In this document: piece by piece, positions 16,123 through 62,215 of the stretch
How positions within the stretch are numbered: position 1 is the stretch's first letter
Layout: the number at the start of each line of letters is the position of its first letter
Origin: Deltaproteobacteria bacterium
Lineage (GTDB): Bacteria; Desulfobacterota; GWC2-55-46; UBA9637
Assembly (NCBI GenBank): GCA_016214995.1
Contig: JACRML010000031.1
Coordinates: 6,453-70,452, forward strand
Length of the DNA: 64,000 nt
Direction of reading: 5' to 3'
The notes under the pieces: generated by a model
Databases searched by the model: none
Seen by the model: only the letters and a program-made list of their open reading frames with translations
Told to the model about the DNA's origin: nothing
Made by a program: the position numbers and the translations under genes

Positions 16123-16188
16123 AGGCTATAGGCAATGGGCTTTGGGTAATAGGAAAACCTATAGCCCAGAGCCTATCACCTATAGCCT
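16123..16188. repeat. Heptamer-array hairpin (family H)
   Basis: Arm aggctat aggcaat gggcttt gggtaat agg, loop aaaa, then the inverted arm. 25 of 31 positions are complementary. Confidence 0.85.
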
Positions 16189-24074: not shown

Positions 24075-24080
24075 TGAAAG

Positions 24081-24395: not shown

Positions 24396-24414
24396 AGTAG
24401 TCATAGACACAAGC

Positions 24415-24801: not shown

Positions 24802-24814
24802 TCTATTCCCACCG

Positions 24815-24948
24815 GATGTAAAAACGATGAATGAAGAGGGCAATCGTAGGGTGGGCATTGCCCACCGGATGAGGAAGATAGAAGGGCTGATGGAGAGGTT
24901 CAGCAGGGACGGTGAAGGGTAAAGGGGTTGTGATTGCAAGAGGTGGGG
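24815..24948 (+). repeat. G-rich post-toxin repeat R3b
   Basis: Roughly 85 percent identical by eye to R3c over about 135 bp. Contains the ggtgggcattgcccacc palindrome and a G-run tract. Starts about 13 nt after the PIN stop. Confidence 0.85.
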
Positions 24949-24996
24949 AAATAAATGAGTCCGCTTCTTCAAAAAAAAGCTAAGTGGAGGTATTTG

Positions 24997-25736: not shown

Positions 25737-25748
25737 CCGATACCGTCA

Positions 25749-25890
25749 AATGCGGAAACGATGATGGAAGAGGGCAAAAAGTTGTAGGGTGGGCTATGCC
25801 CACAGGATGAGAGAGATAGAAGGGCTGAGGGGAGAGGTTCCGCAGGGACGGGGAAGGGTAAGGGGGTTGGGATTGCGAGGGTGGAGGGGG
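25749..25890 (+). repeat. G-rich post-toxin repeat R3c
   Basis: Homologous to R3b. Starts about 13 nt after the HEPN stop. G-runs ggggaagggtaagggggttgggattgcgagggtggaggggg. Confidence 0.85.
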
Positions 25891-26017
25891 ATTTTATAAT
25901 TTCATACATGGATAAACGAGGCGACTAATGCAAATTTGAAGGTGATTGAAAGACTGATAAAACACTCATCAAAGCAATGAGATAAAGGCTGCAATAGCTA
26001 TTGTTTTAATATAAAAT

Positions 26018-34076: not shown

Positions 34077-35114
34077 TCAGGCAGGGCGTGTTAACCCCGA
34101 CACCTTCACCCCGACAAGCCTTACCTCTTTTTGAAAATCTATTTTGTTCAGCACCCATAAAGCTGCTGTCCATATATCATTGAAGGAATCGGTTGGCTCT
34201 TCCATTGTCTTTGCCCTTGTTATGGTGTGGAAGTCTTTGTAGCGAATCTTCAGGGTTACGGTTTTTGCTTTGTATTTATCATATTTCATTCCGTCCACCA
34301 CATCCTTTGCAAGCTCAAACAAGGTCTCTTTTATGAGATACAAATCCCTTGTATCTTCCTGAAATGTAACCTCTCTGGAAAATGAGCTTGGTTCATAAAA
34401 CGGCACAACAGGGCTATCATCCATGCCGTGAGAGTATTCATAGAGCATCCTTCCAAAGGATTTTCCGAAATTTACCTCCAGATGCTGAACAGGGAGCTTT
34501 GCCAATTCACCAATTGTTTTTATACCAAGCTTATGAAGCCTCTTTTCTGTTTTTTCTCCAACCCCCCACAATTTTCTTACAGAGAGAGGGGAAAGTATTT
34601 TGATTATATCCTTTTCCCTTATCACGGTGAAGCCATTGGGCTTATTCATTTCGCTTGCCATCTTTGCCAGAAGTTTATTTGGCGCTATGCCCACCGATGC
34701 TGTAAGGCCAAGCTCCTCCTTAATCCTCTTCTTTATCTCCCTCGCTATATCAAGGGCGCTCTTGCTGCATTCTGTAACATCCATAAATGCCTCATCAAGG
34801 CCGAACGATTCTATGAGCGGCGTGTATTCTCTGATTATTGTTATGAACTTTTCAGATTCGTTTTCATACGCTTCAAAGTCTACCGGCAGAAAGACCGCAT
34901 GAGGGCATCTTTTAGACGCAGTTCTGAGAGGCATACCGGACCTTACCCCAAATTTGCGCGCCTCATACGATGCGGCAGATACAACGCCACGTTTCGTGGG
35001 GTTACCATCGCCGCCCACGATAACGGGCTTGCCTTTTAACTCCGGATGCTTTTTTAATTCTACGGAAGCAAAGAAGGCATCCATGTCTATGTGGATTATG
35101 GAACGGTTTGGCAT
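34077..35114 (-). CDS. dinB: DNA polymerase IV
   Basis: IIHIDMDAFFASVE, Y-family palm, little-finger region. Start chosen at MPNRSIIHID. The ORF is open up to 35168. Confidence 0.9.
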   Translation of the reverse strand: MPNRSIIHIDMDAFFASVELKKHPELKGKPVIVGGDGNPTKRGVVSAASYEARKFGVRSGMPLRTASKRCPHAVFLPVDFEAYENESEKFITIIREYTPLIESFGLDEAFMDVTECSKSALDIAREIKKRIKEELGLTASVGIAPNKLLAKMASEMNKPNGFTVIREKDIIKILSPLSVRKLWGVGEKTEKRLHKLGIKTIGELAKLPVQHLEVNFGKSFGRMLYEYSHGMDDSPVVPFYEPSSFSREVTFQEDTRDLYLIKETLFELAKDVVDGMKYDKYKAKTVTLKIRYKDFHTITRAKTMEEPTDSFNDIWTAALWVLNKIDFQKEVRLVGVKVSGLTRPA

Positions 35115-35257
35115 GTATTCTATACAGAGCGTCATAACTTTGCATACCTGCGTTGCTCCTCGGCTCATCGTTTCGGCGTATGCTTAAAATATGCCTCACT
35201 CCGAGCCTTTGTCGCGCCTTGGTCTGCTTTGTTCTGACGCTCTGTAATGTGTATTTA

Positions 35258-36624: not shown

Positions 36625-36641
36625 CTGTTCCCCCACTATTT

Positions 36642-36723
36642 AGTGTCAGAGTATCAGAGAGTCAAAGAGTCAAAGTAAAAACTATGACCCACTGACTCTT
36701 TGACTCTTTGACTCTTTGATACT
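36642..36723. repeat. Repeat-array hairpin (family H, 8-nt period)
   Basis: gtcagagt atcagaga gtcaaaga gtcaaagt, a loop, then the inverted gactcttt array. The 3' arm encodes the rpiB C-terminal tail. Confidence 0.85.
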
Positions 36724-37161
36724 ATTTTCTATCTCTCGTATTTTATCTAATCTCTTCTGGTGCCTGCCGCCTTCAAATTTTGCCTCAAGCCACGTTTTTA
36801 CCATTTCCCTTGCAAGTCCTTTACCGGCAATTCTTCCGCCGATTACAAGGATATTAGCATCGTTGTGCTCTCTTGCCATTTTTGCGGAATATACATCATT
36901 TACAAGGGCAGCCCGTACATTTGAAAATTTGTTTGCAACTATTGACATGCCAATGCCTGTCCCGCAAATAAGTATTCCTTTTTCAATCTTTCCCATGGAA
37001 ACCTTTTCTGCAACAGGAATACCATAGTCGGGATAGTCAACTGATTCGCTGCCGTTTGTCCCCATGTCAAGGGTATCGACCCCTTTTTCTTTTAAAAAGG
37101 TTTTTATATCTTCTTTCAATTCCAGGCCGGCATGGTCGCTGGCGATAGCAATGGTTTCCAA
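36682..37161 (-). CDS. rpiB: Ribose-5-phosphate isomerase B
   Basis: 159 aa. IAIASDHAGLELK, ILICGTGIGMSIVANK. Confidence 0.9.
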   Translation of the reverse strand: METIAIASDHAGLELKEDIKTFLKEKGVDTLDMGTNGSESVDYPDYGIPVAEKVSMGKIEKGILICGTGIGMSIVANKFSNVRAALVNDVYSAKMAREHNDANILVIGGRIAGKGLAREMVKTWLEAKFEGGRHQKRLDKIREIENSIKESKSQRVSGS

Positions 37162-37181
37162 TCAAGCACTCCTTATTGATT

Positions 37182-37266
37182 GATTACGCAGATTACAAAA
37201 ATAGATTACACAGATAAGGCTTGGTTTATCTAATCTGTGCAATCGTATTCTAAAATCTGTGTAATC
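37182..37266. repeat. Family G element, copy G4
   Basis: gattacgcagat, gattacacagat, then atctgtgcaatc and atctgtgtaatc. The fabF TGA stop lies inside the last unit. 20 bp upstream of the rpiB start. Confidence 0.9.
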
Positions 37267-38503
37267 ATATAAATTTTTTAAACACCAATGTCGCATTGGT
37301 TCCGCCAAAACCAAAGGAGTTTGACATCGCTATATTTATTTTTCTTTCTCTTGCCTTGTTTGGCACATAGTCTAAATCGCATTCAGCATCAGGTGTTTCA
37401 TAATTTATGGTCGGCGGCATTATGCTGTTATAAATAGAAAGAACTGTTATTGCCGCTTCTATTCCTCCGGCAGCCCCGAGTAAATGCCCTGTCATACTCT
37501 TTGTAGAGCTTACCGCAAGTTTTTTTGCATGACCCTGGAAAACTTTTTTTATCGCCATAGTTTCAGCCGCATCACCTACAGGTGTTGATGTGCCGTGGGC
37601 ATTAATATAATCTATATCTTCAGAATTTATCTCAGCCGATTTTAAAGCCATATTCATACACCTTACGGCGCCTTCCCCCTCTGGTGCAGGGGTTGTCATG
37701 TGAAAGGCATCGGCAGTCATTCCATAGCCGACAACTTCAGCATAAATTCTTGCTCCACGTTTCTTGGCAGTTTTCATATCTTCAAGAACCAATACCCCTG
37801 CCCCTTCGCCCAAAACAAAGCCGTCCCTGTTTTTATCAAATGGGCGGCTGGCTTTTTCCGGTGCATCATTTCTTGTGGAAAGAGCCTTCATGGCGCTAAA
37901 TCCTGCAACACAAAGCGGTGTTATTACAGACTCTGTCCCCCCTGCGATCATTATATCCGCATCTCCCCTCTCTATAATTTTAAATGCGTCTCCTATTGAA
38001 TTATTACCTGTAGCGCATGCAGTTACTGCGCTGCTATTTGGGCCTTTTGCTCCAAGTTGTATAGAAACCTGACCGGAGGCAAGGTTTATAATGACCATTG
38101 GTATAAAGAATGGTGTTATTCTGTTAGGGCCTTTTTCATTTAAGATGTTATGCCAGTGTTCTATAGCAGGGAGGCCGCCTATGCCTGAGCCTATATAAAC
38201 ACCGACCCTTTCTGCATTTTCTGACGTTACCTCTAATCCCGCATCTTTTGCAGCCATGATGCTTGCTGCCACTGCATAATGGATAAAGGTGTCCATCTTT
38301 TTAATCTCTTTTTTTGCTATAAATTCCTCTGGATTAAAGTCAGGAACCTCGCCTGCTATCTTGACAGAATAGCTTGCAGCATCAAACCTGGTAATCCGCC
38401 TTATGCCGGATTTACCTTCAACAATTCCTTTCCAGTTTTTTTCTATACCGGTTCCAAGCGGGCTGATAATACCGATTCCGGTGACAACAATGCGTCTTTT
38501 CAT
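37265..38503 (-). CDS. fabF: Beta-ketoacyl-ACP synthase II
   Basis: 412 aa. [15 protein letters not shown], active-site Cys in [26 protein letters not shown]. Confidence 0.95.
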
Positions 38504-38525
38504 ATTACCTTTCTCGAAAAAAATT

Positions 38526-38569
38526 AGAGACTAGGTTTGCGGATAGCTTTTTACCAACCTCTAGTCTCT
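38526..38569. repeat. Short intergenic hairpin (acpP-fabF junction)
   Basis: agagactaggtttg / caacctctagtctct imperfect inverted repeat. Confidence 0.6.
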
Positions 38570-38592
38570 GGCCTATAGTCGCTTTTAAAAAA

Positions 38593-38829
38593 CTACTTTG
38601 CCGCTTTCTTATTTATATAATCAACAGCATCCTTGACGGTCTTTATTTTTTCAGCATCCTCATCAGGTATCTCTATGTTGAATTCCTCTTCAAATGCCAT
38701 CACCATCTCTACAGTATCAAGCGAGTCTGCTCCCAGGTCGTCAACAAAAGATGCCTCTGACTTTACCTCCTCCTCGGTCACACCCAGTTGATCAACTATA
38801 ATTTTTTTAACCTTATTTTCTACAATCAT
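38593..38829 (-). CDS. acpP: Acyl carrier protein
   Basis: 78 aa with the [11 protein letters not shown] phosphopantetheine site. Confidence 0.97.
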
Positions 38830-38912
38830 TTTAAACCTCCTTGTTTTTGTTAATTTTTACAAAGTGTATCCTCTATATCATTTAATTAAATAACTTGTCA
38901 AAGGGTAATGCG

Positions 38913-38995
38913 GGTTAAGGTTCAGGTTCAGGTTGAGAAAAACTTTTTTGGTCTTCGTTTTCCACTCAACTCCAACCTTAACCTCAACCTCAACC
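38913..38995. repeat. Hexamer-array hairpin (family H, aggttN units)
   Basis: ggttaaggttcaggttcaggttgag ... ctcaactccaaccttaacctcaacctcaacc. The same unit family occurs at 59753. Confidence 0.85.
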
Positions 38996-39002
38996 TGTCT
39001 TT

Positions 39003-39743
39003 TTACATATACATCCCGCCATTTATATTTAGAACTTGTCCTGTAATATAGTTGGCAGCATCTGAGACCAAAAAGAGTACGCTCTCAGCTACATCTTCAG
39101 GCATTCCAATTCTGGCCAGGGGTATTTGCTTTGCCAGTTCCTCTCTTACCTTTTCAGAAAGGGCCTGTGTCATTGCTGTCTCTATAAAACCAGGGGCAAT
39201 TGCATTGCAGGTAATGTTTCTTGATGCAAATTCTCGTGCCACTGTTTTTGCAAGGGCAATAACGGCTGCCTTGCTGGCAGAATAGTTTGCCTGGCCTGCG
39301 TTGCCCATCTCTCCAACAATGGATGCAATATTTACAATACGCCCGTATCTCTGCTTTGCCATATACTTCACAGCGGCCTTTGTGCAGTTAAAAACACCTT
39401 TTAGATTTACAGCAATTACAGCGTCCCAGTCTTCCTCTTTCATCCTCAGGATAAGGGCGTCTCTTGTAATTCCGGCGTTGTTGACCAATATATGGATTGC
39501 CCCAAGCTTGGCAACTGTTTCGTCCACCATGGCCTCCGCCTCCTTAAGGTTTGCCACGTTTGCTTTCAGCGCTACTGCCCTTCTGCCAAGGTTCTCTATT
39601 TCTTTGGCAGTTTCCTGTGCCTTTTCAAGGTTCATATCAACGATAACTAAATCAGCGCCGCTATTTGCAAGCCTTAAGGCTATGGCTTTTCCTATGCCCT
39701 GTGCGGCGCCTGTAACAAGGGCAACCTTATCCTTGAGAATCAT
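39003..39743 (-). CDS. fabG: 3-oxoacyl-ACP reductase
   Basis: 246 aa SDR. TGAAQGIGKAIA and YSASKAA. Confidence 0.93.
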   Translation of the reverse strand: MILKDKVALVTGAAQGIGKAIALRLANSGADLVIVDMNLEKAQETAKEIENLGRRAVALKANVANLKEAEAMVDETVAKLGAIHILVNNAGITRDALILRMKEEDWDAVIAVNLKGVFNCTKAAVKYMAKQRYGRIVNIASIVGEMGNAGQANYSASKAAVIALAKTVAREFASRNITCNAIAPGFIETAMTQALSEKVREELAKQIPLARIGMPEDVAESVLFLVSDAANYITGQVLNINGGMYM

Positions 39744-39763
39744 AAAACCTCCTGTAAAAACTG

Positions 39764-40768
39764 TTAAATGTGAACTGTAAACTGTTTTAAGTCTTCCGGC
39801 TTCTCTATGTTTATTGTCTTTATACTGCTGTCTATCCTTTTTACAAGGCCTGTCAGTACTCTGCCGGGTCCGATTTCTATAATGGCTTCTACACCTTCCT
39901 GTCTCATCCTTTTAATAGACTCAACCCATCTGACAGGGCTGTAAAGTTGTTTTTCAAGAAGCTCCTTGACTCGCGTTTCTTCTAATAAAGGTTCTGCCTC
40001 CACATTTGTAATTACAGGGGTATTAAGCGGCTTAACTTTTATGCCGTTCAGCTCTTTTGCAAGTTTTTCGGCTGCGGGCTTCATAAGCGGAGAATGAGAA
40101 GGGACGCTTACCGGTAAAGGTATGACCCTTTTTGCCTTTCTATCCTTTGCAAGATTAGAGGCTCTTTCTACCGCCTCTTTATGGCCGGATATGACGGTCT
40201 GCTCGGGGGTATTAAAATTTGCAGGGACAACAATACTTTTTTCTGTGCTGGTTTCTCTGCAAATACCCTCTACGATTTCTCTTGTAAGTCCAAGTATGGC
40301 TGCCATAGCGCCAATACCTTGCGGTACAGCGTCCTGCATAAATCTTCCCCTCATGTTAACCAATCTAACCGCATCCTTAAAATCCAATGCGCCGCTGGCA
40401 ACCAAGGCAGTATACTCTCCAAGGCTGTGGCCTGCCAGCAACTTGGGTTTTATAGAAACTTCCTGCTCCAGACATTTAAGCGCCGCTACACTTGCGGTTA
40501 ATAAGGCAGGCTGGGTATTCTGCGTCCGATTAAGCTCTTCAATCGGGCCTTGAAAACAGAGCTTTGCCATATCAAGATGCAGTGTATCGCTGGCTTCTCG
40601 AAAAATCTTCTTTGCATCGGCATATCTATCGTAAAATTCCTTTGCCATGCCAAGACATTGGGAACCTTGGCCAGGGAAGATAAAAGCAATTTGTGAGGCA
40701 AGAGGCAAGAGGCAAGAGGCAAGATTTTTTTCTTGCTCCTTGCTTCTGACTTCTGACTTCTGACTCAT
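39764..40768 (-). CDS. fabD: Malonyl-CoA-ACP transacylase (start uncertain)
   Basis: IAFIFPGQGSQ, GHSLGEY. The 26 codons before IAFIFPGQGSQ are repeat-hairpin sequence. An internal TTG (giving MPLASQIAF) is an alternative start. Confidence 0.88.
   Translation of the reverse strand: MSQKSEVRSKEQEKNLASCLLPLASQIAFIFPGQGSQCLGMAKEFYDRYADAKKIFREASDTLHLDMAKLCFQGPIEELNRTQNTQPALLTASVAALKCLEQEVSIKPKLLAGHSLGEYTALVASGALDFKDAVRLVNMRGRFMQDAVPQGIGAMAAILGLTREIVEGICRETSTEKSIVVPANFNTPEQTVISGHKEAVERASNLAKDRKAKRVIPLPVSVPSHSPLMKPAAEKLAKELNGIKVKPLNTPVITNVEAEPLLEETRVKELLEKQLYSPVRWVESIKRMRQEGVEAIIEIGPGRVLTGLVKRIDSSIKTINIEKPEDLKQFTVHI
40695..40764. repeat. Heptamer-array hairpin (gaggcaa / ttctgac units) at the fabD 5' end
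   Basis: gaggcaa x4, loop ttttttt, then tcttgctccttgcttctgacttctgacttctgac. Confidence 0.85.
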
Positions 40769-40769
40769 C

Positions 40770-41744
40770 TCACCACCTCACCACTGCCGATGCCCATGTA
40801 AATCCGCCGCCAAAGGCAACAAAAAGTATAATATCGCCCTTTTTTATAACCCCTTTTTTAACCGCCTCATCAAGGGCAAGCGGGATAGAGCCGGCAGATG
40901 TATTGCCATATTTATCAAGGTTTATGTAAATCTTTTCTTCCGGCAGCCCCAATCTTTCTGCAGTAGCCTTTATTATGCGCATATTTGCCTGATGCGGAAT
41001 TAAAAGTGAGACATCCTCAACCTTCAACCCATTATGGTCTAATGCCTCCTGACATACTTCTCCCATTGTTCTGACTGCAACCTTGAATGTTTCATTGCCT
41101 TGCATTCTTAAAAAGGAATTTTCCAGAGGCTTATTGTGGAAAGGGCTTGAGGCTATGCAAAGAGGGGTATACAGCATTTTCCAGTAATGGCCATCAGCAT
41201 GGATGTGAGTTGAGAGTATGCCGCTCTTGCCTTTTTCACCGGAGAGTACAACAGCGCCGGCGCCATCTCCAAACAGAACGCATGTATTTCTGTCCTTCCA
41301 GTCAACAATATGAGAAAACAGGTCTACCCCTATGACCAGAGCCTTCTTGTTTACCCCTGCTCGTATATATTTGTCTGCTATATCTAACGCATAGAGGAAG
41401 CCGGAACATGCTGCGGATATATCAAAAGCAGGTATCCCTCTGTTGGCGCCAATGTGAGCCTGCACAAAACAGGCAGTGGACGGGAACAACATCTCTGGCG
41501 TGACTGTACCCACAATAATCAGGTCTATTTCTTTGGGGGAAATGCCTGCCGCCTTAAGGGCATTTTTCGCGGTTTTTGTGGCAATCTCATTTGTAGTTTC
41601 ATGATCTGCAATCCTTCTTTCCTTTATGCCTGTTCTGGAGGTAATCCACTCATCGCTGGTATCCACCATACGTTCAAGGTCCTGATTTTTAATGACCCTT
41701 GGCGGCACATAAGAACCTGTTCCGATTATGCTGGCTCTCATCAT
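40770..41744 (-). CDS. fabH: Beta-ketoacyl-ACP synthase III
   Basis: 324 aa. IIGTGSYVP, active-site Cys in DISAACSGF, PHQANMRI, GNTSAGSIP. Confidence 0.95.
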   Translation of the reverse strand: MMRASIIGTGSYVPPRVIKNQDLERMVDTSDEWITSRTGIKERRIADHETTNEIATKTAKNALKAAGISPKEIDLIIVGTVTPEMLFPSTACFVQAHIGANRGIPAFDISAACSGFLYALDIADKYIRAGVNKKALVIGVDLFSHIVDWKDRNTCVLFGDGAGAVVLSGEKGKSGILSTHIHADGHYWKMLYTPLCIASSPFHNKPLENSFLRMQGNETFKVAVRTMGEVCQEALDHNGLKVEDVSLLIPHQANMRIIKATAERLGLPEEKIYINLDKYGNTSAGSIPLALDEAVKKGVIKKGDIILFVAFGGGFTWASAVVRW

Positions 41745-41753
41745 TTACAATTA

Positions 41754-42788
41754 CTAGCCTTCTTCTCCCACAGAATGCATGGACGCCTGTCTTCCGAGCT
41801 TCTGAAGAATCTGACTTTTTTCAAGTTCTTCTAATAGATGGCGGTTAATCTTGTTTCTGGCGCATTCAGACGCAACCTTTATGGCATTTTTTATTGCTTT
41901 GGCATCAGATGCACCGTGGCTTATTATACCGATGCCATCTATGCCGAGAAGCGGTGCCCCGCCATATTCTGCATAGTCCACCTTCTTTTTTACTTTTTCA
42001 AGTGCGCTTTTAGCAAGCAGATATCCGAACTTGGCAGAAAGACTTGCCATGATTTCTTTTTTAAGCATTGATGTAAGGGCCTCGGCTACGCCTTCGGTCA
42101 CCTTAAGCACCACATTCCCCACAAATCCGTCGCACACTACTACATTCAAATCCCCTGAAAATATATCTCTGCCTTCTACATAACCAATATAGTTAAGATA
42201 ATTAAAAGAACTATCTTTTAATATCTCATGGGTTTCTCTTGTAAGTTCATTACCCTTGCCTTCTTCTTCGCCGTTTGAAAGGAGGCCAATCTTGGGGTTA
42301 TTTTTCTTGAGTATATACTTGGCATAAACAGAGCCCATAAGTGCAAATTGAACCAGATGTATGGGCTTGCAGTCAACATTTCCACCAGCATCCAATACTA
42401 TGACAGGTTCTTTCTTGGTAGGCAGGATAACTGCAATGGCAGGGCGGTCAACACCTTTTAAATTCCTAAGCACAAATATGCCGGCAGCCATTGCAGCCCC
42501 TGAATTGCCTGCGCTTACAACAGCATTGGCTTCTCCGTTCTTGACCAGGTCAAAGCAGACCCTGATAGATGAATCCTTCTTTTTTCTCATTGCCTGGCCA
42601 GGGGATTCATCCATGCCGACAACTTGAGAGGTATGTTTAATAGATATGGGAAGGCCTTGCCATTTATGCTTGACAAGTTCATCCTCAATTCTGGTTTTAT
42701 CACCAACCAGTATTAAGGGGATATCAAGTTCTCTGGCAGCCCACACTGCACCTTCTACTACAACAGAAGGGGCGTAATCTCCACCCAT
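41754..42788 (-). CDS. plsX: Phosphate acyltransferase PlsX (N-terminus probably extends to about 42809)
   Basis: MGGDYAP..., GFVGNVVLK. The conserved KIAVDA segment is encoded in frame upstream of the first ATG with no canonical start. Confidence 0.9.
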
Positions 42789-42811
42789 TGCATCAACAGC
42801 TATCTTCAGCG

Positions 42812-42903
42812 GTTATCAGTTACCAGTTGACAGTTATCAGTTGACAGTTACCAGTTTTTGTCTTTCACTGATAGCTGTTCACTGCTCACTGTTCACTGAT
42901 AAC
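42812..42903. repeat. Heptamer-array hairpin (NNNcagt units) between rpmF and plsX
   Basis: gttatcagt taccagt tgacagt tatcagt tgacagt taccag, a loop, then the inverted actg arrays. The outer 9 bp are perfect. Confidence 0.85.
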
Positions 42904-43082
42904 TACTCCTTGCTTTTTATGACCTCTCTGCCTTTATATGTGCCGCAGTTGGGGCAGATGTGATGAGGAGCCTTGGGTTCCCCGCATTGAGGGCATAGTG
43001 AAATAGCAGGCTTTGACAGTGCATCATGGCTTCTGCGGTTATTCCTTCTTGTTCTGGAATGTCTCTTTTTAGGATTTGGCAT
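42903..43082 (-). CDS. rpmF: 50S ribosomal protein L32
   Basis: MPNPKKRHSRTRRNNRRSH... with CPQC...CPNC. Start at the second ATG. Confidence 0.93.
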   Translation of the reverse strand: MPNPKKRHSRTRRNNRRSHDALSKPAISLCPQCGEPKAPHHICPNCGTYKGREVIKSKE

Positions 43083-43259: not shown

Positions 43260-43790
43260 TTATTTGAGTTTGAGTTCCTTCAGCTTGGCAAACCTTGTAT
43301 CTGTATGATCTGTCGCATGGCAGCCGCAATTTCCCTGATTTAAATCTGCACCGCACTTCGGGCAGAGCCCCTTGCAATTAGGTCCGCATACAGGCTGCAT
43401 TGGTATATCTAATGAAAGCTGCTCAAAAAGAACTGCATTTATATCTATTTCATTGCCCTTTAAATAGTTGGCGCTGGCTTCTTCTCGCGAGAGTTCCTTT
43501 TCCTTCTCTTTTAAGCCATGTTCAGGAGCAATTGAGTAGACAACGTCTATATTAGAACTTATTTTTTGCTCAAATTCTTTCAAGCATCTGGCACAACGAA
43601 GCTTAAGGATAGACGCCATACGTCCTCTTACAAACACTTCTTCATCTGATTTTAGCAGTGTAAGATTTGCAGAAACAGGCGACAGAATTAAAAAATCTAC
43701 CTTATCAGCGGCGGTCTGCAGCTCACTGCCATTTTCTGCAATATCGAGATGCAATCCCTCTTCAAGTATATCACGGATATCCACCTTCAT
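43260..43790 (-). CDS. yceD: YceD/DUF177 family protein
   Basis: 176 aa from MKVDIRD. C-terminal CxxxCxGLCxxCG..L.....C motif (CGPNCKGLCPKCGADLNQGNCGC). Canonical position upstream of rpmF. The ORF-track extension to 44075 reads through repeat A3. Confidence 0.8.
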   Translation of the reverse strand: MKVDIRDILEEGLHLDIAENGSELQTAADKVDFLILSPVSANLTLLKSDEEVFVRGRMASILKLRCARCLKEFEQKISSNIDVVYSIAPEHGLKEKEKELSREEASANYLKGNEIDINAVLFEQLSLDIPMQPVCGPNCKGLCPKCGADLNQGNCGCHATDHTDTRFAKLKELKLK

Positions 43791-43870
43791 TGTAATTTTA
43801 GAGGTTTTATAATATACAAGAACTGTGTTGTTGTTGTCAAGGATAAAGCTGTCTCCTGTTAAAGCTATTT

Positions 43871-44170
43871 CCGTACAATAGCAATTAAAAACCTCGCTAT
43901 TGTACATCTTCCCCTTGCAATCGCTTCGCAGCAAGTGGAACCAGCCGATTTGCTCGCCCCAAGCTTTGCTTGGGTGCCCCGACTTTGTTATCGGCCATTT
44001 TTGCTCCTCACCGTATCCTCCCGCTGTCCCCCTCCATGAGGGGATAAAGGGGGGAGGGCTCGTCGCAAATAACACACCCCTTTAGTCCCCCCTCTCGCGA
44101 GGGGATTTAGGGGTGTGTTGTCTGGCAGGCAGCTTGCAGGTTCCCCCAAAAATCAAAGTCTATTTTTGGG
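43871..44170 (-). repeat. Family A repeat, copy A3 (longest, with extra modules)
   Basis: Contains all A modules plus cctcccgctgtccccctccatgaggggataaaggggggagg (44017-44057). That module is the one found in frame inside queC. Confidence 0.85.
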
Positions 44171-45970: not shown

Positions 45971-47212
45971 ATGGGGCAGAAGGCAAGAGGCAAGAGGCAA
46001 GAGGCAAGAGGTAAGACTATTTATCTTGCTTCTAACTTCTTGCTTCTAACTTCTTGCTTCTTGCTTCTTGCTATTCCTCTCGCTTTAGCAGCGGAACCCC
46101 CAAAAACCAAAACCGAGGTTGTAAAGAAAGAAAAGCAGCTGGAATCTCTTAAAAGGGAGATTGTAGAAAAAAAGAAAAGTTTAGAATATAATGTAAGAAA
46201 AGAGAATAATATCCTTGAAGAATTGGAAAGGCTTGATAAAGCAAGATTTAAAAAAGAGGAAGAGTTGACAGATATAGAAGATAGCATTATTAAGCTAAAA
46301 CAAAAAACCAGCGCAGTGGACATACATATTGCAACGTTGGTGCGCGAGAGAGAAAGGCTGGCAGGGTTTTTGAACCAGCGATTGGTTGCTATGTATAAGA
46401 TGAAGAAAGGCGGCGTAATACAGCCGCTCTTTTCCTCCAACTCTGTTAATGATTTTGGCAGAAGATATAAGTATATAAACAAGATAGTAGAGTATGACGT
46501 TGACCTGTTAAAGGATTACAAAGAGAATCAACTGCTTTTAGAAGCAGAAAAGGAGAGGCTTAAGGCATTTCAGGAAGAGGCATTTTCCTTAAAGGATGAG
46601 GTTGAACACAAAAAAGGAGAGATAGAAGAGGAAAAGGATAAAAAGCAAGCTCTCTTGACAGCCATAAAGAAGAAAAAGAACATACAGCTTGCTACAATAC
46701 GGGAAATGGAGGACGCTTCTAAAGAACTCCAGTCTTTTTTAGACAAATTCAGAAAGGATATGGCGGAAAATACCGGAGGAAGCCATACTTTCGGTTTTGC
46801 AGCGATGCGGGGCAATCTGCCGATGCCGGTAGCAGGGAAGATTGTTTCCCTGTATGGGAAAGTGGAGCATCCGAAATTTCGCACTGTTACTTTTAATAAT
46901 GGTATTGAAATAGCCGCAAATATGGGGGGGGAGGTTAGGTCTGTGTACAAGGGGAGGGTGGCGTATTCAGGATGGTTCAGAGGTTATGGAAAGGTTATGA
47001 TTGTAGACCATGGTGACGGCTATTTTACCCTGTTTGCCCGTCTTTCAAAAATTATTAAAGATCTGGATTCCATTGTAGAAAAAGGCGATATAGTTGCCCT
47101 TGTAGGGGATACAGGCTCCATAAAAGGTCCGCACTTATATTTTGAAGTAAGACAGAAGGGAGTACCGTTGGACCCGTTAAATTGGTTGGCTTATACAGAA
47201 AGAAAAAAGTAG
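45971..47212 (+). CDS. M23 peptidase-domain murein hydrolase activator (EnvC-like)
   Basis: Signal peptide, long coiled coil, and C-terminal M23 domain (DHGDGYFTLFARL, GPHLYFEVRQKGVPLDP). Confidence 0.85.
   Translation: MGQKARGKRQEARGKTIYLASNFLLLTSCFLLLAIPLALAAEPPKTKTEVVKKEKQLESLKREIVEKKKSLEYNVRKENNILEELERLDKARFKKEEELTDIEDSIIKLKQKTSAVDIHIATLVRERERLAGFLNQRLVAMYKMKKGGVIQPLFSSNSVNDFGRRYKYINKIVEYDVDLLKDYKENQLLLEAEKERLKAFQEEAFSLKDEVEHKKGEIEEEKDKKQALLTAIKKKKNIQLATIREMEDASKELQSFLDKFRKDMAENTGGSHTFGFAAMRGNLPMPVAGKIVSLYGKVEHPKFRTVTFNNGIEIAANMGGEVRSVYKGRVAYSGWFRGYGKVMIVDHGDGYFTLFARLSKIIKDLDSIVEKGDIVALVGDTGSIKGPHLYFEVRQKGVPLDPLNWLAYTERKK
45976..46071. repeat. Heptamer-array hairpin forming the EnvC-like signal-peptide codons
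   Basis: Arm gaaggca agaggca agaggca agaggca agaggta aga, loop ctattta, then arm tcttgcttctaacttcttgcttctaacttcttgcttcttgcttcttgc. Confidence 0.85.
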
Positions 47213-47307
47213 GCAGTAAGGAGTAGGCAGTAAGCAGGTTAGTAGGATGGGTGAAGCGCACTCATCTGTTGTAGGCTGCATGCTCCTTACTGCTTACTGC
47301 ATACTGA
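47209..47307. repeat. Heptamer-array hairpin with a nested gtaggatgg module
   Basis: gtaggca gtaagga gtaggca gtaagca gg ... ctccttactgcttactgcatactgac. Confidence 0.8.
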
Positions 47308-47330
47308 CTTCATAAGGAGGAACAAACATC

Positions 47331-48644: not shown

Positions 48645-48650
48645 ATACAA

Positions 48651-48752
48651 AATCCTAATTTCTAAATCCTAATTTCTAATAAAAATCTAAATGTCCAATG
48701 GCAAAACTGGAAATTGGTAATTGGAAATTTTATTGGAAATTAGACATTAGGG
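48651..48752. repeat. AT-rich repeat-array hairpin (aatcctaatttct units)
   Basis: aatcctaatttctaaatcctaatttctaat ... attggaaattttattggaaattagacattaggg. Related to the hairpin at 62108 and the half-arm at 63883. Confidence 0.8.
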
Positions 48753-49708: not shown

Positions 49709-49772
49709 GCCGTGATGCGTGTCCGTGAACCGTGAAAAAATTACGGTCACGGACAACGGACACGGATAACGG
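49709..49772. repeat. Repeat-array hairpin (ccgtgNN units)
   Basis: gccgtgatgcgtgtccgtgaaccgtga, loop, then ttacggtcacggacaacggacacggataacgg. Confidence 0.85.
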
Positions 49773-50743: not shown

Positions 50744-51568
50744 ATGACACAGGAATCAGAAGTCGGAAGTCAGAAGTCAGAAATTAGAAGTCAGAGGTTA
50801 GAAGCAAGAAGCAAGAAAAAATCTTGCATCTTGCACCTTGCATCTTGCATCTTACTGTTCACTGTCTTTTACAGCTGTGCCTCTGATGCAAGCCGAAAAG
50901 ACGATGCAGATATACATTATAAGATTGGCGTTGTTCATCTTAATGAAGGGAACATCCCTGAGGCTATGAAAGAGTTGACGACTGCTGTGGAGAAATATCA
51001 CAAAGAGGCCTCATTTCACAATGCGCTTGGCCTGGCATATTTTGCTAAAGGTATGCATGAAGATGCAGTAAAGCATATGAAAGAGGCTACAAGTATAAAC
51101 CCGAAGTTTTCTGATGCCCATACAAATCTTGCAGCTGTTTATCTTGAAAAAAAGGAGTGGGATTTAGCTGTAGCAGAAGCCAAGCTTGCTCTATCCGATA
51201 TTTTTTACACTACCCCGGAATTTGCTTATTTCAATATGGGACGCGCCTTTTATGAGAAGGCTGATTATGCAAAGGCAGAAGAAAGCTATAAAAAGGCAAT
51301 AGAGAGCAATCCAAAATATATTGTTGCCTACAACAATATGGGTCTTACCTATATGAAGATGAACAGAGATAAAGAGGCGGCAGATATGTTCAGGCTTGCG
51401 ATAAGGAATGCGCCAAATTATGTTGATGCCCATTACAGACTTGGTCTTGTTTTGATAAACCTGAAGGATAAGAAGGGGGCATTCAATGAATTTCAGGAGG
51501 TTATAAAACTTGCTCCTGACAGCGAGACGGCAAGGTCTGCCAAAAGTTACATAGACTTGTTAAAATAG
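50744..51568 (+). CDS. TPR-repeat lipoprotein (PilW/PilF-like, upstream of rodZ)
   Basis: AGGAG SD. N-terminus from the repeat hairpin ends in a possible lipobox VFYSC, followed by multiple TPRs. The conserved pilW-rodZ neighbourhood supports the call. Confidence 0.7.
   Translation: MTQESEVGSQKSEIRSQRLEARSKKKSCILHLASCILLFTVFYSCASDASRKDDADIHYKIGVVHLNEGNIPEAMKELTTAVEKYHKEASFHNALGLAYFAKGMHEDAVKHMKEATSINPKFSDAHTNLAAVYLEKKEWDLAVAEAKLALSDIFYTTPEFAYFNMGRAFYEKADYAKAEESYKKAIESNPKYIVAYNNMGLTYMKMNRDKEAADMFRLAIRNAPNYVDAHYRLGLVLINLKDKKGAFNEFQEVIKLAPDSETARSAKSYIDLLK
50756..50857. repeat. Heptamer-array hairpin forming the TPR lipoprotein signal-peptide codons
   Basis: tcagaag tcggaag tcagaag tcagaaa ttagaag tcagagg ttagaag caagaag caaga, loop aaaaa, then tcttgca tcttgca ccttgca tcttgca tcttactg. 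Confidence 0.85.
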
Positions 51569-51606: not shown

Positions 51607-52542
51607 ATGGAAAGTCCTGGAGAATATCTTAAGAGAGAGAGAGAGATTAGGGGTATCCCATTAGAAGATATTTCTAATGCAACCAAGGTAAGGGTAGGGC
51701 TTCTTACTGCTATAGAGAGAAACGATTTTGATGTCTTGCCATCAGCGCCTTTTGTAAAAGGTTTTATACAGGCATATTGTAAATATCTTGGTCTGGATGT
51801 GCAGGATGCATTGCTGCGCTATGAGGCATATATTCGTATTGCAGAGGATGAAACATCTGCCATGAAACAGAAGTCCGGAGCTATTACTCAACCACCAATT
51901 AAGCCTGGGGTTGAAAATTCTGTGTCTTATTCGCAGCTTTCAATTATAGGCATTGCGGCCATCGCACTATTGATAATAGTAGGCGGCGTGTATATTATAT
52001 CAAAATCAAAGAGGCAGCCGTCTGCTACCCCTGATTCTTCTGTTCGGCAAGTTGATGGCTCATCCAATTTTCAAACAAGGGAGAGTCAAACCGGGCACAG
52101 GGTGGGGCGTGAAGTTATTGCAAAAAAAGAAGCGTCTTCTTTGCCAACAAAATCTGAAGCCCAATCAAATCCAACCCATGAAGCTTCTGCCTCTAAGGTA
52201 TCAATAAAAAAAGAAAATAAAGATGCAAAAGATATGTTGCCAGATAATGTTGTTATTGATAAAGGTCCTCTTGTACTAATCATAGAGGCTACAAAGCCTA
52301 CGTGGATTAAAGCTGAGGTTGACGGCATGAACCCGTTTGAGGTGTCTCTAAAGCAGGGGGAAAAGATAAAATGGAATGCGAAAGAAAGGTTTTCTATTCT
52401 TATAGGAAACGCAGGTGGTGTTAATGTAATATTTAACGACAATCTGCTTGGCAGTTTGGGGGATGAGGGTAAGGTGGTAAAACTTGTTCTGCCAAAGGAA
52501 AGACTACAGACTCCGGACTCAAGACCACAGACTCAAAACTAA
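51607..52542 (+). CDS. rodZ: Cytoskeleton protein RodZ
   Basis: N-terminal HTH GEYLKREREIRGIPLEDIS..., FVKGFIQAYCKYLGLD, a TM segment, and a C-terminal DUF4115-like domain. Confidence 0.85.
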   Translation: MESPGEYLKREREIRGIPLEDISNATKVRVGLLTAIERNDFDVLPSAPFVKGFIQAYCKYLGLDVQDALLRYEAYIRIAEDETSAMKQKSGAITQPPIKPGVENSVSYSQLSIIGIAAIALLIIVGGVYIISKSKRQPSATPDSSVRQVDGSSNFQTRESQTGHRVGREVIAKKEASSLPTKSEAQSNPTHEASASKVSIKKENKDAKDMLPDNVVIDKGPLVLIIEATKPTWIKAEVDGMNPFEVSLKQGEKIKWNAKERFSILIGNAGGVNVIFNDNLLGSLGDEGKVVKLVLPKERLQTPDSRPQTQN

Positions 52543-52578
52543 GATTTTGGGCGTTAAAACTTTGGTCTTGAGTCTGTA
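52506..52578. repeat. Repeat hairpin overlapping the rodZ 3' end
   Basis: acagactc[cggactc]aagacca ... tggtcttgagtctgt. The 5' arm encodes the RodZ tail LQTPDSRPQTQN. Confidence 0.75.
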
Positions 52579-55104: not shown

Positions 55105-57522
55105 TCATATCATCTCCTTTTTAATAAGCCTTTTCATCTTTTCAACCGCCTCAAGTGCATCCTTTGCATAACCGTTCGCGCCTATCCTGTCTGCAAATTC
55201 CTGGTTCACCACCGCGCCTCCAACCATGGTCAAAACAGATACACCATGCTCTTTAAGCTTTTTAATAACATTATCCATTTCCATAACAGTTGTTGTCATC
55301 AAAGCTGAAAGACCAACTGCATCTACTTTATTTTTTATTGCCTCTGCTATGATTTTACCGGCAGGGACATTTTTTCCCAAATCAATGACTTCAAAACCAT
55401 GATTTTCCAATAGTGTGGATACAATATTTTTTCCGATATCATGAATATCGCCTTCAACAGTTGCCATCAAAACCTTGCCCATGCTTTGCGCTTTTTCCCC
55501 TTTAAACTCTTTTTTCAACCTGTCAAACGCCTTTTTCATGGTATCGGCAGAGAGCATAACCTGCGGCAGAAAGTAAATATTTTTATTAAACAATCGTCCA
55601 ACTTCTTCAAGTCCAGGTATGAGTCCCGCATTGCTTATCTTCAATGGATCCCATCCATGCTTCAAAGCCTCTTCAACCAATGAAACAATCCCTTCCTCAT
55701 CGCCGTTGATAATCGCATTCTTCAGCTTTTCATCAATTGTTTTAGGTTCTTTTTTTTCTTCTGACTTCTGACTTCTGACTTCTGACTTCTGGCCGTATCT
55801 CCTGATATATCTCTCTGCTCTCAAGTCATGGCCTGTCAGCACAATTGCGGCATGATATGCATCCATCATCAGACTATTATGCGGATTTATAATAGCAGCG
55901 TCAAGACCCGCCTCAATTGCCATTGTTAGAAAATTTGCATTTATTGCCTCCCTGTTCGGAAGACCGAATGAGATGTTGCTTACCCCAAGTATCGTGGAGA
56001 CTCCGAGTTTTTCCTTGACCATCCTAATTGCCTTCAAAGTCTCCCGTGCGGATTTCTGGTCTGCGCTCACTGTCATTGCAAGACAATCTATCACAACATC
56101 GGATTTTGAAAGGCCACATTCTAAAGCCCGCTTTAAAATTATCTCCGCAACGCAAAACCTGCCTTCTGTGGTCGGCGGAATGCCTTTATCATCCAGCGTC
56201 AGGCCGAGCACAGCTGCTCCGTATTTTTTTGCAAGAGGAAGGATTGTGCTTAATTTCTTTTCCTCTCCGCTTACTGAGTTTATCAACACCTTCCCGTCAA
56301 CTGCCTTTAAACCTGTTTCTAAGGCTTCAAGGCTTGAGGAGTCAAGAACTATGGGAAGCGGGCAGTTTTCATTGACTGCAAATACAGCCATCTGCATTGA
56401 TGCGGGTTCGTCTATCCCAGGCACCCCGACATTTACATCTAATATATGAGCGCCTACATCAGCCTGAGATTTTGCCTCTTTGCGGATGATAGAGGTCTTT
56501 TTATCTTTAATTTCCTGCTGGAGAAGTTTTTTGCCAGTCGGATTTATTCTTTCGCCTACAATTACAGGCGGCTGGGCGCCGCCAAATGATATATATCCGC
56601 TGCGGCTCGCAAGCCTGGTTTGGTGGGCATAGCCCACCCTACGACCTCCTGACTTCTGACTTCTAACTTCTGACTTCATTGCCTTAATATGCTCAGGTGT
56701 TGTGCCGCAGCAGCCGCCGATTATCTTGACGCCTGCGTCCAAAAGTTTAGGTACATACTTTGCCATCTCGGAAGGGCTGGCGGGAAATATGGTTTTGCCG
56801 TCTTTGAGATACGGTATACCTGCATTGGGTTGGGCGATTAAAGGCAGGTTAGTAACCTTGCTCATCGCAATAATCGCCTTGTAGATTCCTTCTATGCCAA
56901 GACTGCAGTTTGCGCCAATAACATCAGCGCCAAGACCCTCTGCAACTACGGCAAACACCTCTGGCGGAGTGCCAAGAACAGTCCTCATGGTCTCATCAAA
57001 TGTCATGGTTGCCGCTACCGGCAGGCCAGATGCCTTTGCAGCAATGATTGCCGCCTTCATCTCCCTTATATCCATCATCGTCTCAATGATGATTAAATCC
57101 ACGCCGCCGTCTTTTAGCGCACCAACCTGCTCTGAAAATATATCCACTGCCTCATCAAATGACAGGTCACCCACAGGCTCCAAAAACCTGCCGGTTGGCC
57201 CGAGTCCGCCTGCAACAAATTTATCTTTACCGGCTGACTCTCTTGCGTTTTTCGCTGCATTGAGATTTATTTCATGGAGTTTGTTTTCAAAATTATATTC
57301 CTTTAGCTTGGTTCTATTGGCGCCAAATGTGCATGTTGTAACAACATCAGAACCCGCATTTATATATCCTTTGTGAACTGTCTTTATCATCTCAGGATTT
57401 GTGATATTAAGCTCATCAGGGCAGCCGCCTGGCTTCAATCCAAGCCTCTGAAGCATTGTGCCGGTAGCGCCGTCAAAGAGGATGGGACGTTCATTTAATA
57501 TTTTTAAAAATTTGCTTTGCAT
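55105..57522 (-). CDS. metH: Methionine synthase (Hcy-MT, pterin-binding and B12-binding domains; no C-terminal activation domain)
   Basis: 805 aa. GGCCGTTPEHI, GERINPTG, and the DxHxxG B12 motif GDIHDIGKNIV. Two in-frame repeat inserts. Confidence 0.92.
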   Translation of the reverse strand: MQSKFLKILNERPILFDGATGTMLQRLGLKPGGCPDELNITNPEMIKTVHKGYINAGSDVVTTCTFGANRTKLKEYNFENKLHEINLNAAKNARESAGKDKFVAGGLGPTGRFLEPVGDLSFDEAVDIFSEQVGALKDGGVDLIIIETMMDIREMKAAIIAAKASGLPVAATMTFDETMRTVLGTPPEVFAVVAEGLGADVIGANCSLGIEGIYKAIIAMSKVTNLPLIAQPNAGIPYLKDGKTIFPASPSEMAKYVPKLLDAGVKIIGGCCGTTPEHIKAMKSEVRSQKSGGRRVGYAHQTRLASRSGYISFGGAQPPVIVGERINPTGKKLLQQEIKDKKTSIIRKEAKSQADVGAHILDVNVGVPGIDEPASMQMAVFAVNENCPLPIVLDSSSLEALETGLKAVDGKVLINSVSGEEKKLSTILPLAKKYGAAVLGLTLDDKGIPPTTEGRFCVAEIILKRALECGLSKSDVVIDCLAMTVSADQKSARETLKAIRMVKEKLGVSTILGVSNISFGLPNREAINANFLTMAIEAGLDAAIINPHNSLMMDAYHAAIVLTGHDLRAERYIRRYGQKSEVRSQKSEEKKEPKTIDEKLKNAIINGDEEGIVSLVEEALKHGWDPLKISNAGLIPGLEEVGRLFNKNIYFLPQVMLSADTMKKAFDRLKKEFKGEKAQSMGKVLMATVEGDIHDIGKNIVSTLLENHGFEVIDLGKNVPAGKIIAEAIKNKVDAVGLSALMTTTVMEMDNVIKKLKEHGVSVLTMVGGAVVNQEFADRIGANGYAKDALEAVEKMKRLIKKEMI
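55758..55790. repeat. In-frame ttctgac heptamer array inside metH
   Basis: cttctgac followed by ttctgac repeats. Translated as QKSEVRSQKSE in the linker before the B12 cap domain. Confidence 0.9.
56600..56680. repeat. In-frame mosaic repeat inside metH (palindrome module plus heptamer array)
   Basis: ggtgggcatagcccaccctac plus ctgacttctgacttctaacttctgac. Translated as SEVRSQKSGGRRVGYAHQTRLA. Confidence 0.85.
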
Positions 57523-59564: not shown

Positions 59565-59657
59565 CAGTGAAAAGTGATGAGTGAATAGTGTTGAGATTTA
59601 TTTTGTTCTACCCATTTTTGTTTTTACTAACCACTCATCACTGACCACTGCACACTG
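59565..59657. repeat. Heptamer-array hairpin between tRNA-Lys and tRNA-Glu
   Basis: cagtgaa aagtgat gagtgaa tagtg ... ctaaccactcatcactgaccactgcacactg. Confidence 0.8.
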
Positions 59658-59740: not shown

Positions 59741-59752
59741 GTTATTAAAACA

Positions 59753-59799
59753 AAGGTTGAGGTTAAGGTTGAGGTTTCTCTTAGCCTTAACCTTGACCT
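59753..59799. repeat. Hexamer-array hairpin (aggttN units) after purA
   Basis: aaggttgaggttaaggttgagg, loop, agccttaaccttgacct. Same unit family as 38913. Confidence 0.8.
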
Positions 59800-59804
59800 G
59801 TTTT

Positions 59805-62100
<2,296 letters not shown>

Positions 62101-62107
62101 ATATAAG

Positions 62108-62215
62108 AAATCCTAAACCCCAATGTCTAATTCCTAATAAGATGTCCAATAACTAAATTTTTAATATTTTTTTGATATTTGACATTTTATTGGAAATTAG
62201 GATTTAGAAATTTAG
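62108..62215. repeat. AT-rich repeat-array hairpin (cctaat / attagg units)
   Basis: aaatcctaaaccccaatgtctaattcctaataagatgtccaat ... atttgacattttattggaaattaggatttagaaatttag. Confidence 0.8.

Follow-up and report, generated by a model that had tools for sequence, protein, structure and literature searches.

The 64,000-nt stretch analyzed here, hereafter the window, comes from an uncultured groundwater bacterium (contig JACRML010000031.1, assembly GCA_016214995.1) and carries at many of its gene junctions imperfect hairpins whose two arms are themselves tandem repeats. The common plan consists of two inverted arrays of 6–8-nt, mostly 7-nt, units flanking an A/T-rich loop. Comparison with related genomes shows that these elements belong to a handful of dispersed families, that they are quickly replaced between close relatives, and that their arms change together. 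They occupy tolerant sites, either past stop codons and between cistrons or transfer RNA (tRNA) genes or, when in frame within a coding sequence, at the N-terminus, in the signal peptide or in a linker between domains. In our judgment they are probably lineage-wide palindromic elements resembling the short tandemly repeated repetitive (STRR) sequences of cyanobacteria, which spread and are remodeled by slippage and strand switching and persist where they are tolerated.

Arrays were called with Tandem Repeats Finder (TRF; periods 6, 7 and 8), and their arms were paired with an inverted-repeat finder. RNA folding z-scores refer to dinucleotide shuffles, with the better-folding strand quoted. They were calculated per element in place of the raw sliding-window minimum free energy (MFE), which is driven by G+C content and blind to A/T-rich hairpins. 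Gene identities in the window were taken from Pfam annotation, and junction totals were counted from its open reading frame (ORF) map, giving about 49 junctions in the whole window and about 27 between 36.6 and 62.3 kb.

FabH had no exact match among recorded proteins, a metagenome scan with FabD returned no relative above 57% identity, and relatives were obtained by a CtpA protein search. The nearest genome is the groundwater metagenome-assembled genome GCA_016219285.1, labeled Deltaproteobacteria, which is the source of both L001 (FabD 91% identical) and L161 (CtpA 95%). The CtpA search further provided a graded series comprising L162 (91%), L163 (86%), L164 (85%), L165 (82%), L166 (78%) and L167 (72%), the last serving as the outgroup in the junction comparison. 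The relatives carry the labels Deltaproteobacteria or Thermodesulfobacteriota.

Architecture and density of the hairpin arrays

The inverted-array architecture is real and non-random, as established by array calling, arm pairing, folding and shuffle controls. An initial annotation of the window, made from the sequence alone, had listed hairpins at 15 loci. Fourteen of them are hairpins with tandem 6–8-nt arms, TRF finding period-6, -7 or -8 arrays at every listed locus but 38526, and every unit sequence that it named is present in the window. The inverted-repeat finder paired arms at 16123, 36641, 42812, 47190, 48662, 49710, 59565 and 59748. Pairing measured against shuffled controls revealed long imperfect hairpins at 13 of the 15 loci (z about −3 to −9.6). 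The overall fold at 50756 is weak (z about −2), its pairing being confined to the inner AAGCAAG/TCTTGCA part. A strict Watson–Crick hairpin scan identified 10 hairpins in the window versus 0, 0, 1, 0 and 0 in five shuffles (mean about 0.2).

The density of period-7 arrays is 0.30/kb in the window versus 0.018/kb across 2.38 Mb around fabD in 159 unrelated genomes, and non-overlapping period-7 arrays of at least 2.8 copies number 19 in the window and 15 in L001 (all by TRF). At nine loci from eight related genomes (CtpA identity 72–100%), 6–8-mer arrays occur at 0.23–1.28/kb, compared with about 0.02/kb at the fabD loci of the 159 unrelated genomes. Because all of the related genomes show raised density, array abundance is a trait of the clade rather than of one genome or assembly. 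An assembly artefact was ruled out by the recurrence of orthologous elements across independent NCBI, JGI, ENA and Logan assemblies. Clustered regularly interspaced short palindromic repeat (CRISPR)-like arrays were also ruled out, the units being contiguous and without spacers. In an Rfam covariance-model scan of the window only three tRNAs reached the gathering score, and no element matched a family.

Hairpins are present at 14 of the approximately 49 junctions of the window and at 13 of the approximately 27 between 36.6 and 62.3 kb, so the earlier statement that almost every junction carries one was too strong. The first 35 kb of the window holds just one of them. Their placement between co-directional genes applies to most, which are intergenic, but those at 40695, 45975 and 50756 lie inside ORFs. 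Most elements start 0–12 nt past a stop codon or include the stop, and end ahead of the next Shine–Dalgarno (SD) site. For the hairpin-forming inverted 7-bp arrays between co-directional genes, structure and position are observed, and co-transcription is suggested by operon layout alone.

The window reads rpmF-plsX-fabH-fabD-fabG-acpP-fabF-rpiB-glyA on the − strand; nlpC/P60, M23 peptidase, ctpA, polysaccharide deacetylase, pfkB, a TPR protein, rodZ and a GAF protein on the + strand; and, beyond the GAF gene, a metH-like gene, tRNAs, purA, a hisZ-like gene and serA on the − strand. The elements outside coding cores, together with one non-member, are the following.

16123..16188: AGGCTAT/AGGCAAT-type 7-mer hairpin with paired arms, between the LysM protein stop and the dprA start (both − strand)
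36641..36724: hairpin with AGTCAAAG 8-mer arms at the rpiB/glyA junction; z −9.6/−5.2
38524..38572, − strand: non-member, a short stem-loop between acpP and fabF with T7 after it on the sense strand; z −1.9/−3.0; conserved in L001
38913..38998: AGGTTG/AGGTTA hexamer hairpin between the fabG stop and the acpP promoter (TRF and fold)
39758..39785, − strand: degenerate AAACAGT-type heptamers over the fabD stop, without a hairpin (TRF)
42812..42904: CAGTGAA/ACTGNNA-type heptamer hairpin, beginning at the rpmF stop and ending 3 nt ahead of plsX
47190..47316: GTAGGCA/GTAAGGA heptamer hairpin, from the M23 stop codon to about 15 nt ahead of the ctpA SD site
48650..48750: AAATCCT/AATTTCT-family palindrome separating ctpA from the polysaccharide deacetylase gene
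49709..49772: CCGTGAN-unit hairpin between the deacetylase gene and pfkB
52506..52577: ACAGACTC-type hairpin that contains the rodZ stop and ends ahead of the SD site of the GAF-domain gene
59565..59650: CAGTGAA/GAGTGAA-type hairpin between two tRNA genes
59748..59805: AGGTTG/AGGTTA hexamer hairpin between the purA stop and a tRNA gene, the sole element with flanking T-runs and terminator-like
62108..62215: the other AAATCCT/AATTTCT-family palindrome of the window, separating serA from a HisZ/HisS-like gene

The 16123 element lies 3 nt past the LysM-gene stop and 11 nt ahead of the dprA ATG, and folds with an MFE of −45.6/−41.3 kcal/mol (z −8.6/−7.5). At 36641, the rpiB frame crosses the first arm and stops within the loop, glyA beginning 5 nt past the end of the element; the Pfam domain of RpiB ends at residue 141 of 159. 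Since 38526 lacks arrays, consists of a short stem plus T7 and is conserved in the closest genome, it is regarded as an ordinary acpP-fabF terminator or attenuator.

Additional observations concern the flanking genes. A near-consensus sigma-70 promoter, TTGACA-N17-GATATA, conserved in both L001 and L162, lies upstream of acpP (38870–38900, − strand); the fabG-acpP hairpins stand immediately upstream of it. The plsX start (42807–42809, − strand) reads CTG in the window versus ATG in L001 and L162 (…TAACCG CTG AAG ATA GCT…), with an in-frame TGA and TAA just upstream. This may be a CTG start, a variant or an error, and ORF callers begin 7 codons late, at 42788. In L162, plsX (3186–4241) is called as two ORFs, of 119 and 211 aa, separated by about 60 nt of unrelated sequence, which could represent a frameshift, an insertion or an assembly problem.

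Turnover, dispersal and in-frame copies

Across relatives, units turn over at orthologous junctions while the hairpin persists, a pattern that the initial annotation had put forward for comparison.

rpmF-plsX: CAGTGAA/ACTGNNA in the window; the same element in L001, with the 3′ arm homogenized to (AACTGGT)n; a different family in L162
fabH-fabD: TCAGAAG composite in the window; unrelated elements in L001 and L162; all three in frame behind the same SD site and ATG
fabD-fabG: degenerate heptamers only in the window; full hairpins, mutually different, in L001 and L162
fabG-acpP: AGGTTR hairpin in the window; none in L001; AGCCTAC-type hairpin in L162
M23-ctpA: GTAGGCA in the window; GTAGGCA-like hairpins in six of eight genomes; a short remnant in L165; a 22-nt gap without a hairpin in L167
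deacetylase-pfkB: five families in five genomes (CCGTGAN in the window; L161, L162, L164 and L166); a short non-array palindrome in L163 and L165
pfkB-TPR: TCAGAAG composite in the window; an ortholog of equal copy number with about 6% point differences in L161

The arms at the M23-ctpA junction co-vary, native 5′/3′ pairs folding better than chimeric pairs in four of five genomes. At fabG-acpP, the insertions in the window and in L162 both start after the same ACAG of a small stem. The ctpA-deacetylase element (48650) has orthologs in L161 and L162 that enclose other small palindromes, and the rodZ-GAF junction (52506) holds a related family in L164 and a different family in L161. There are also signs that arrays may have been seeded from local sequence, with array-free relatives holding the seed at the same place. 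In place of the (AGGCAAG)n of the window, the M23 signal peptide of L165 has CAGAAGGC, and ATGAGTCAG is common to the window and L162 at the fabD start, before their arrays diverge.

Variation of the unit from locus to locus had initially been taken to argue against transposition. Families do vary among loci, but the same units and composites recur at several of them, and copies of a few families, alike in loop and heptamer order, are found at loci that are not orthologous, so that the argument does not hold. Exact tandem units recurring in the window include AAGTCAG (four loci), AAGAGGC (two) and AAGAAGC (two). The elements at 40695, 45975 and 50756 share an ordered composite of (YCAGAAG)n, (CAAGAAG)n, an A-run and (TCTTGCN)n, with 70% column identity (alignment A2). 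AAATCCT/AATTTCT palindromes align across non-orthologous loci of four genomes (window 48650 and 62108, L001 14050, L164 5825 and L167 5050; alignment A1), and copies of this family tend to have TATA/TTAT flanks. The AGGTTR family recurs at window 38913 and 59753. An AAATCGT/AATTACG family with the common core CGATTTAAAATC occupies three to four loci in L001 and L161 and none in the window, whereas AAGTCAG occupies four window loci versus one, the ortholog, in L001 and L161. Such genome-specific families point to particular elements having spread inside individual genomes once the lineages had diverged.

Elements also occur in frame inside genes, and in the window these are the following.

40695..40765, − strand: composite (TCAGAAG)3-(CAAGGAG)-CAAG-A7-(TCTTGCC)4 in the FabD N-terminus
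45975..46075, + strand: hairpin (AGGCAAG)5-loop-(CTTGCTT/CTAACTT)n, translated as the M23 peptidase signal peptide
50756..50860, + strand: composite (TCAGAAG)n-(CAAGAAG)2-A6-(TCTTGCA)n in the N-terminus and signal peptide of the TPR lipoprotein, with the lipobox FYSC downstream
55758..55791, − strand: unpaired single array (TCAGAAG)4.9 and then an A-run, encoding KSEVRSQKSEEKK, in the MetH-like linker that joins the pterin-binding domain to the B12-cap domain
56649..56677, − strand: single array (AAGTCAG)4 in the MetH-like linker that joins the Hcy-methyltransferase domain to the pterin-binding domain

The 40695 element sits between a conserved SD site and ATG, 1 nt past the fabH stop, and the conserved FabD core, whose Acyl_transf_1 domain (Pfam) begins downstream of it at residue 29. 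The M23 signal peptide encoded at 45975 reads MGQKARGKRQEARGK-TIYLASNFLLLTSCFLLLAIPLALA/AEP. Its purine arm yields the K/R-rich n-region and its pyrimidine arm the L/F/C-rich h-region, followed by ALA/AEP; the signal peptide that L164 and L165 have at this position is short and ordinary. In L001, the CobQ linker that separates the CbiA domain from the GATase_3 domain includes a full hairpin in frame, (GATTTCG)4.7/(AAATCGC)5.3, and two non-complementary arrays lie inside a tetrapyrrole methylase gene. Coding arrays and hairpins in FabD, M23, TPR, MetH, CobQ and the tetrapyrrole methylase are always in linkers or termini, and no array inside an ORF breaks the frame in any of the genomes examined. 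Cytoplasmic linkers tend to hold the hydrophilic, purine-rich arm only and signal peptides hold both arms, a distribution that fits filtering at the protein level. Because the two-arm build is also found in frame inside genes, the architecture appears to be a property of the element or its generation rather than of a junction function.

Several further repeats and genes were recorded in the same regions. A second hairpin family has the same inverted-array layout, with two direct and two inverted copies of GATTACACAGAT(T) in units of about 12–18 nt. It is dispersed clade-wide, occurring at window 14938–15001, 18108–18190 and 37180–37262, L001 7508–7550 and L166 at about 13090–13200. A repeat of about 120–150 nt resembling miniature inverted-repeat transposable elements (MITEs) occurs at window 2266–2419, 22522–22643 and 43960–44130, with termini AAACTGGTAAGTTGCCTGCCAGAC … GTATGGCAGGCAAATCGCCAGTTT and internal G/C-rich palindromes of the GGGGATTTAGGGG type. 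The YceD ORF (43260–44075, − strand) is 271 aa long versus 174 aa in L001 and L162, its Pfam domain starting at residue 150; because the extension runs into the MITE-like repeat, its start is probably over-called. A 42-nt G/C-rich palindrome (CCTTCCCCCTTATCCCCCTCATGGAGGGGGACAGGGGGAGG) lies in frame in QueC (window 3090–3131) and adds about 14 residues beside the C-terminal Cys cluster; in L161, a nearly identical copy (about 4560–4600) sits within the loop of the ctpA-deacetylase hairpin. A small lysine-rich ORF, MAAKKKAAKKATKKTAKKAKKSSCKSC (window 2107–2190, + strand), is built from 12-nt repeats AAAGAAGGCAGC. A DinB/Pol IV (IMS family) gene adjoins glyA (34077–35168, − strand); error-prone polymerases are among the enzymes involved in slippage and template switching. 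A defense and toxin–antitoxin island (23041–32481) encodes HTH-SocA/Panacea, PIN and HepT-like proteins, as well as a 1313-aa type IIG Eco57I/MmeI-like methylase-nuclease followed by an 841-aa protein without a Pfam match.

Origin of the elements and competing explanations

In the mechanism that we favor, arrays would grow and homogenize by replication slippage, and the second arm would be created and kept matched by hairpin-templated strand switching, a form of quasipalindrome correction. Passages in three papers describe template switching between imperfect inverted-repeat arms as homogenizing and extending them (PMC8604942, PMC13100816, PMC7202029). Family copies would reach new sites by some copy-and-paste or conversion process. 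Selection would mainly purge copies that break frames, SD sites or protein folds, and because it would chiefly remove harmful copies, a junction location would represent a pattern of tolerance rather than proof of function. Once transcribed, an element would have to fold into a 20–35-bp imperfect RNA hairpin, which could slow 3′ exonucleases or attract RNase III as a side effect that may occasionally be co-opted, as in the two signal peptides.

A number of observations weigh against this account. Repeated gain of a hairpin at one junction (M23-ctpA in six of eight genomes, deacetylase-pfkB in five of seven) could equally reflect selection for structure. Of 22 elements, 16 fold better as the sense strand (binomial p about 0.05). 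RNA-level selection would predict such an advantage, but it is not taken as decisive here, since sense strands show a purine (G>C) skew and the orthologs are not independent. The initial annotation had named copies of a few mobile families with target-site duplications as the contrary outcome; dispersed families were indeed found, but no consistent target-site duplications were seen at elements in the orthologous-junction and family alignments. No transposase, reverse transcriptase or HUH nuclease is encoded among the ORFs of the 64-kb window according to Pfam. Copy number did not differ among five near-clonal assemblies of one related species (3 single-nucleotide polymorphisms in about 6.8 kb), and the pfkB-TPR array pair of the window and L161 has kept its copy number, with point changes only. 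As the five assemblies are nearly clonal, their identical copy numbers argue only weakly against rapid phase variation; taken together with the ortholog pair, they make array change look episodic rather than continuous.

One alternative, suggested in the initial annotation and considered rather unlikely here, is that the hairpins are selected intercistronic RNA elements that block 3′–5′ exonucleases or are cut by RNase III and thereby set cistron stability or expression, their sequence being free to vary. The recurrence of hairpins with different sequences at the same junctions and the co-variation of their arms speak for this possibility, yet the same architecture occurs within coding sequences, where an intercistronic role makes no sense. 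A small palindrome stands at deacetylase-pfkB even in array-free relatives, but the M23-ctpA gap of the outgroup measures 22 nt and has no hairpin, and presence or absence at fabG-acpP and fabD-fabG varies between genomes whose FabD proteins are 91% identical. Placement 0–12 nt after stops, leaving the next SD site free, is also in keeping with such a role, which has been proposed for the hupS-hupL STRR hairpins of cyanobacteria (PMC2670836). The better folding of sense strands adds to this, subject to the skew and the non-independence noted above.

Another explanation treats the elements as MITE-like palindromes, or as palindromes resembling paired repetitive extragenic palindromic (REP) sequences (REPINs), that are non-autonomous and moved by a transposase encoded elsewhere, with the arrays as terminal inverted repeats. 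It is compatible with slippage and strand switching, and as an account in its own right we consider it rather unlikely too. Families at non-orthologous loci share loops and unit order, different genomes amplify different families, and sites are filled in one close relative and empty in another. Inverted termini are inherent to these elements. Against mobility, filled sites replace older sequence rather than interrupt it; boundaries are ragged, and older sequence has been replaced at deacetylase-pfkB. The TATA/TTAT flanking tendency of AAATCCT-family copies and the palindromes nested within elements of L161 and L162 suggest mobility, whereas clear target-site duplications and a transposase in the 64-kb window are missing, the arrays appear to be locally seeded, the number of units in an arm varies freely and some copies have a single arm.

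It also seems doubtful that the elements form a gene-less, self-propagating class of palindromic heptamer arrays. Such a class would spread family by family in each genome through an undescribed mechanism, such as hairpin-primed copying or an unrecognized trans-acting enzyme. It would be kept at operon junctions for a useful RNA hairpin and repeatedly co-opted by proteins, the charged product of the purine arm and the hydrophobic product of the pyrimidine arm making a ready-made signal peptide or membrane anchor.

Intrinsic terminators or attenuators are a very improbable explanation: the hairpins are stable and stand just past stop codons, but many lie inside ORFs or between genes of obvious operons such as the fab cluster, and the true terminator-like hairpin at 38526 is built differently and is conserved. 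In agreement with the earlier remark that most hairpins lack a U-tract, only the one at 59754–59799, with its T-run flanks, passed a stem-plus-T-tract terminator scan, the other 13 of 14 having no T-tract; inner-stem matches at 40718 and 50827 are C/T-rich arm sequence and not tails. Equally remote is the notion of contingency loci, in which gain or loss of a 7-nt unit would switch genes on and off: heptamer arrays do lie beside or inside start regions, a one-unit change would shift the frame, and bacterial simple-sequence repeats classically serve phase variation (PMC4679880), but the genes concerned are housekeeping ones (fabD, metH, cobQ and the ctpA operon), every array inside an ORF is in frame in all genomes examined, and the five assemblies, a weak test given their near-clonality, showed no copy-number variation.

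Relation to known repeats and significance

The elements resemble cyanobacterial STRR sequences in having tandem 7-bp units in many dispersed arrays, and CAGT/ACTG-containing heptamers are common in both (Nostoc csR1; window 42812). The consensus heptamers of STRR1–3 are CCCCAGT, TTGGTCA and CAACAGT, none of which is among the exact tandem units of the window. In both groups some arrays are paired into a hairpin between genes that are, or in the window are predicted to be, co-transcribed. The initial annotation knew of no described class with this paired form, but it had been noticed before, since hairpin-forming 7-bp STRR arrays between the co-transcribed hupS and hupL genes are on record (PMC2670836). 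The same report states that such arrays are no rarity among filamentous cyanobacteria and proposes transcript stability or translational coupling as their role. The present elements differ in that their host is a groundwater lineage labeled Deltaproteobacteria and not a cyanobacterium, and in that pairing at junctions is the norm, not an occasional case. They also occur in frame inside genes, and their turnover is documented across graded relatives.

More broadly, a passage in PMC4679880 that draws on Mrazek 2007 gives heptamer arrays as the commonest long simple-sequence repeats of prokaryotes. TAACTGA heptamer direct repeats have been reported just upstream of starts in Beggiatoaceae, cyanobacteria and Bacteroidetes (MacGregor 2015, PMC4679880). 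The likeness to these repeats lies in the preference for heptamers, in arrays of 2–6 or more copies near starts and gene ends with some inside ORFs, and in a sporadic phylogenetic distribution; the ACTGATA/TAACTGA unit itself is present in the rpmF-plsX element of the window. The Beggiatoaceae genome has essentially one unit in direct repeats, with one inverted pair in 170 sets, whereas many families and an inverted norm characterize the present elements.

REP sequences offer a further comparison. At malE-malF, a REP hairpin in the RNA can stabilize the upstream mRNA. The REP sequences, bacterial interspersed mosaic elements and REPINs of enterobacteria and pseudomonads are likewise abundant imperfect palindromes, found in operons and after stops as within-genome families (PMC3116915). 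In contrast, REP arms are not tandem arrays, REPs are not in frame in genes, and they have a conserved motif recognized by a REP-associated tyrosine transposase (RAYT). Pfam identified no Y1 HUH (RAYT) gene among the window ORFs, and no foot motif is common to the families.

Rickettsia palindromic elements, reportedly described by Ogata et al. in 2000, are said to form palindromic families between genes and in frame in conserved coding genes. They share with the present elements both intergenic and in-frame insertion, adding surface or linker peptides, but they reportedly measure 100–150 bp, are not tandem-repetitive, are restricted to Rickettsia and have no sequence relationship to the arrays described here. 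The tandem repeats of Borgs are, according to the abstract, fast-evolving, recent and independently arisen, and add linker-like or disordered peptide segments (PMC9879509). Borgs are archaeal extrachromosomal elements as opposed to a bacterial chromosome, and that abstract mentions no inverted partner array.

The feature is striking in density and regularity, yet it is not a new class. In the literature accessible to us, we found no non-cyanobacterial clade in which the paired form dominates, no evidence of family turnover or genome-specific amplification of this kind, and no in-frame use as signal peptides or linkers. The older cyanobacterial STRR reports consulted concern single loci and contain no such graded comparison, whereas the series of genomes with 72–100% CtpA identity lets the gain of heptamer-array hairpins, their replacement and their entry into coding sequence be followed at defined junctions. 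On the practical side, the elements cause gene callers to extend or shift starts wrongly, as in fabD, plsX and the 271-aa YceD ORF, and could also break assemblies. The series makes testable the contribution of slippage and strand switching versus mobility, selection on intercistronic hairpins, and the conversion of repeat DNA into signal peptides and linkers.

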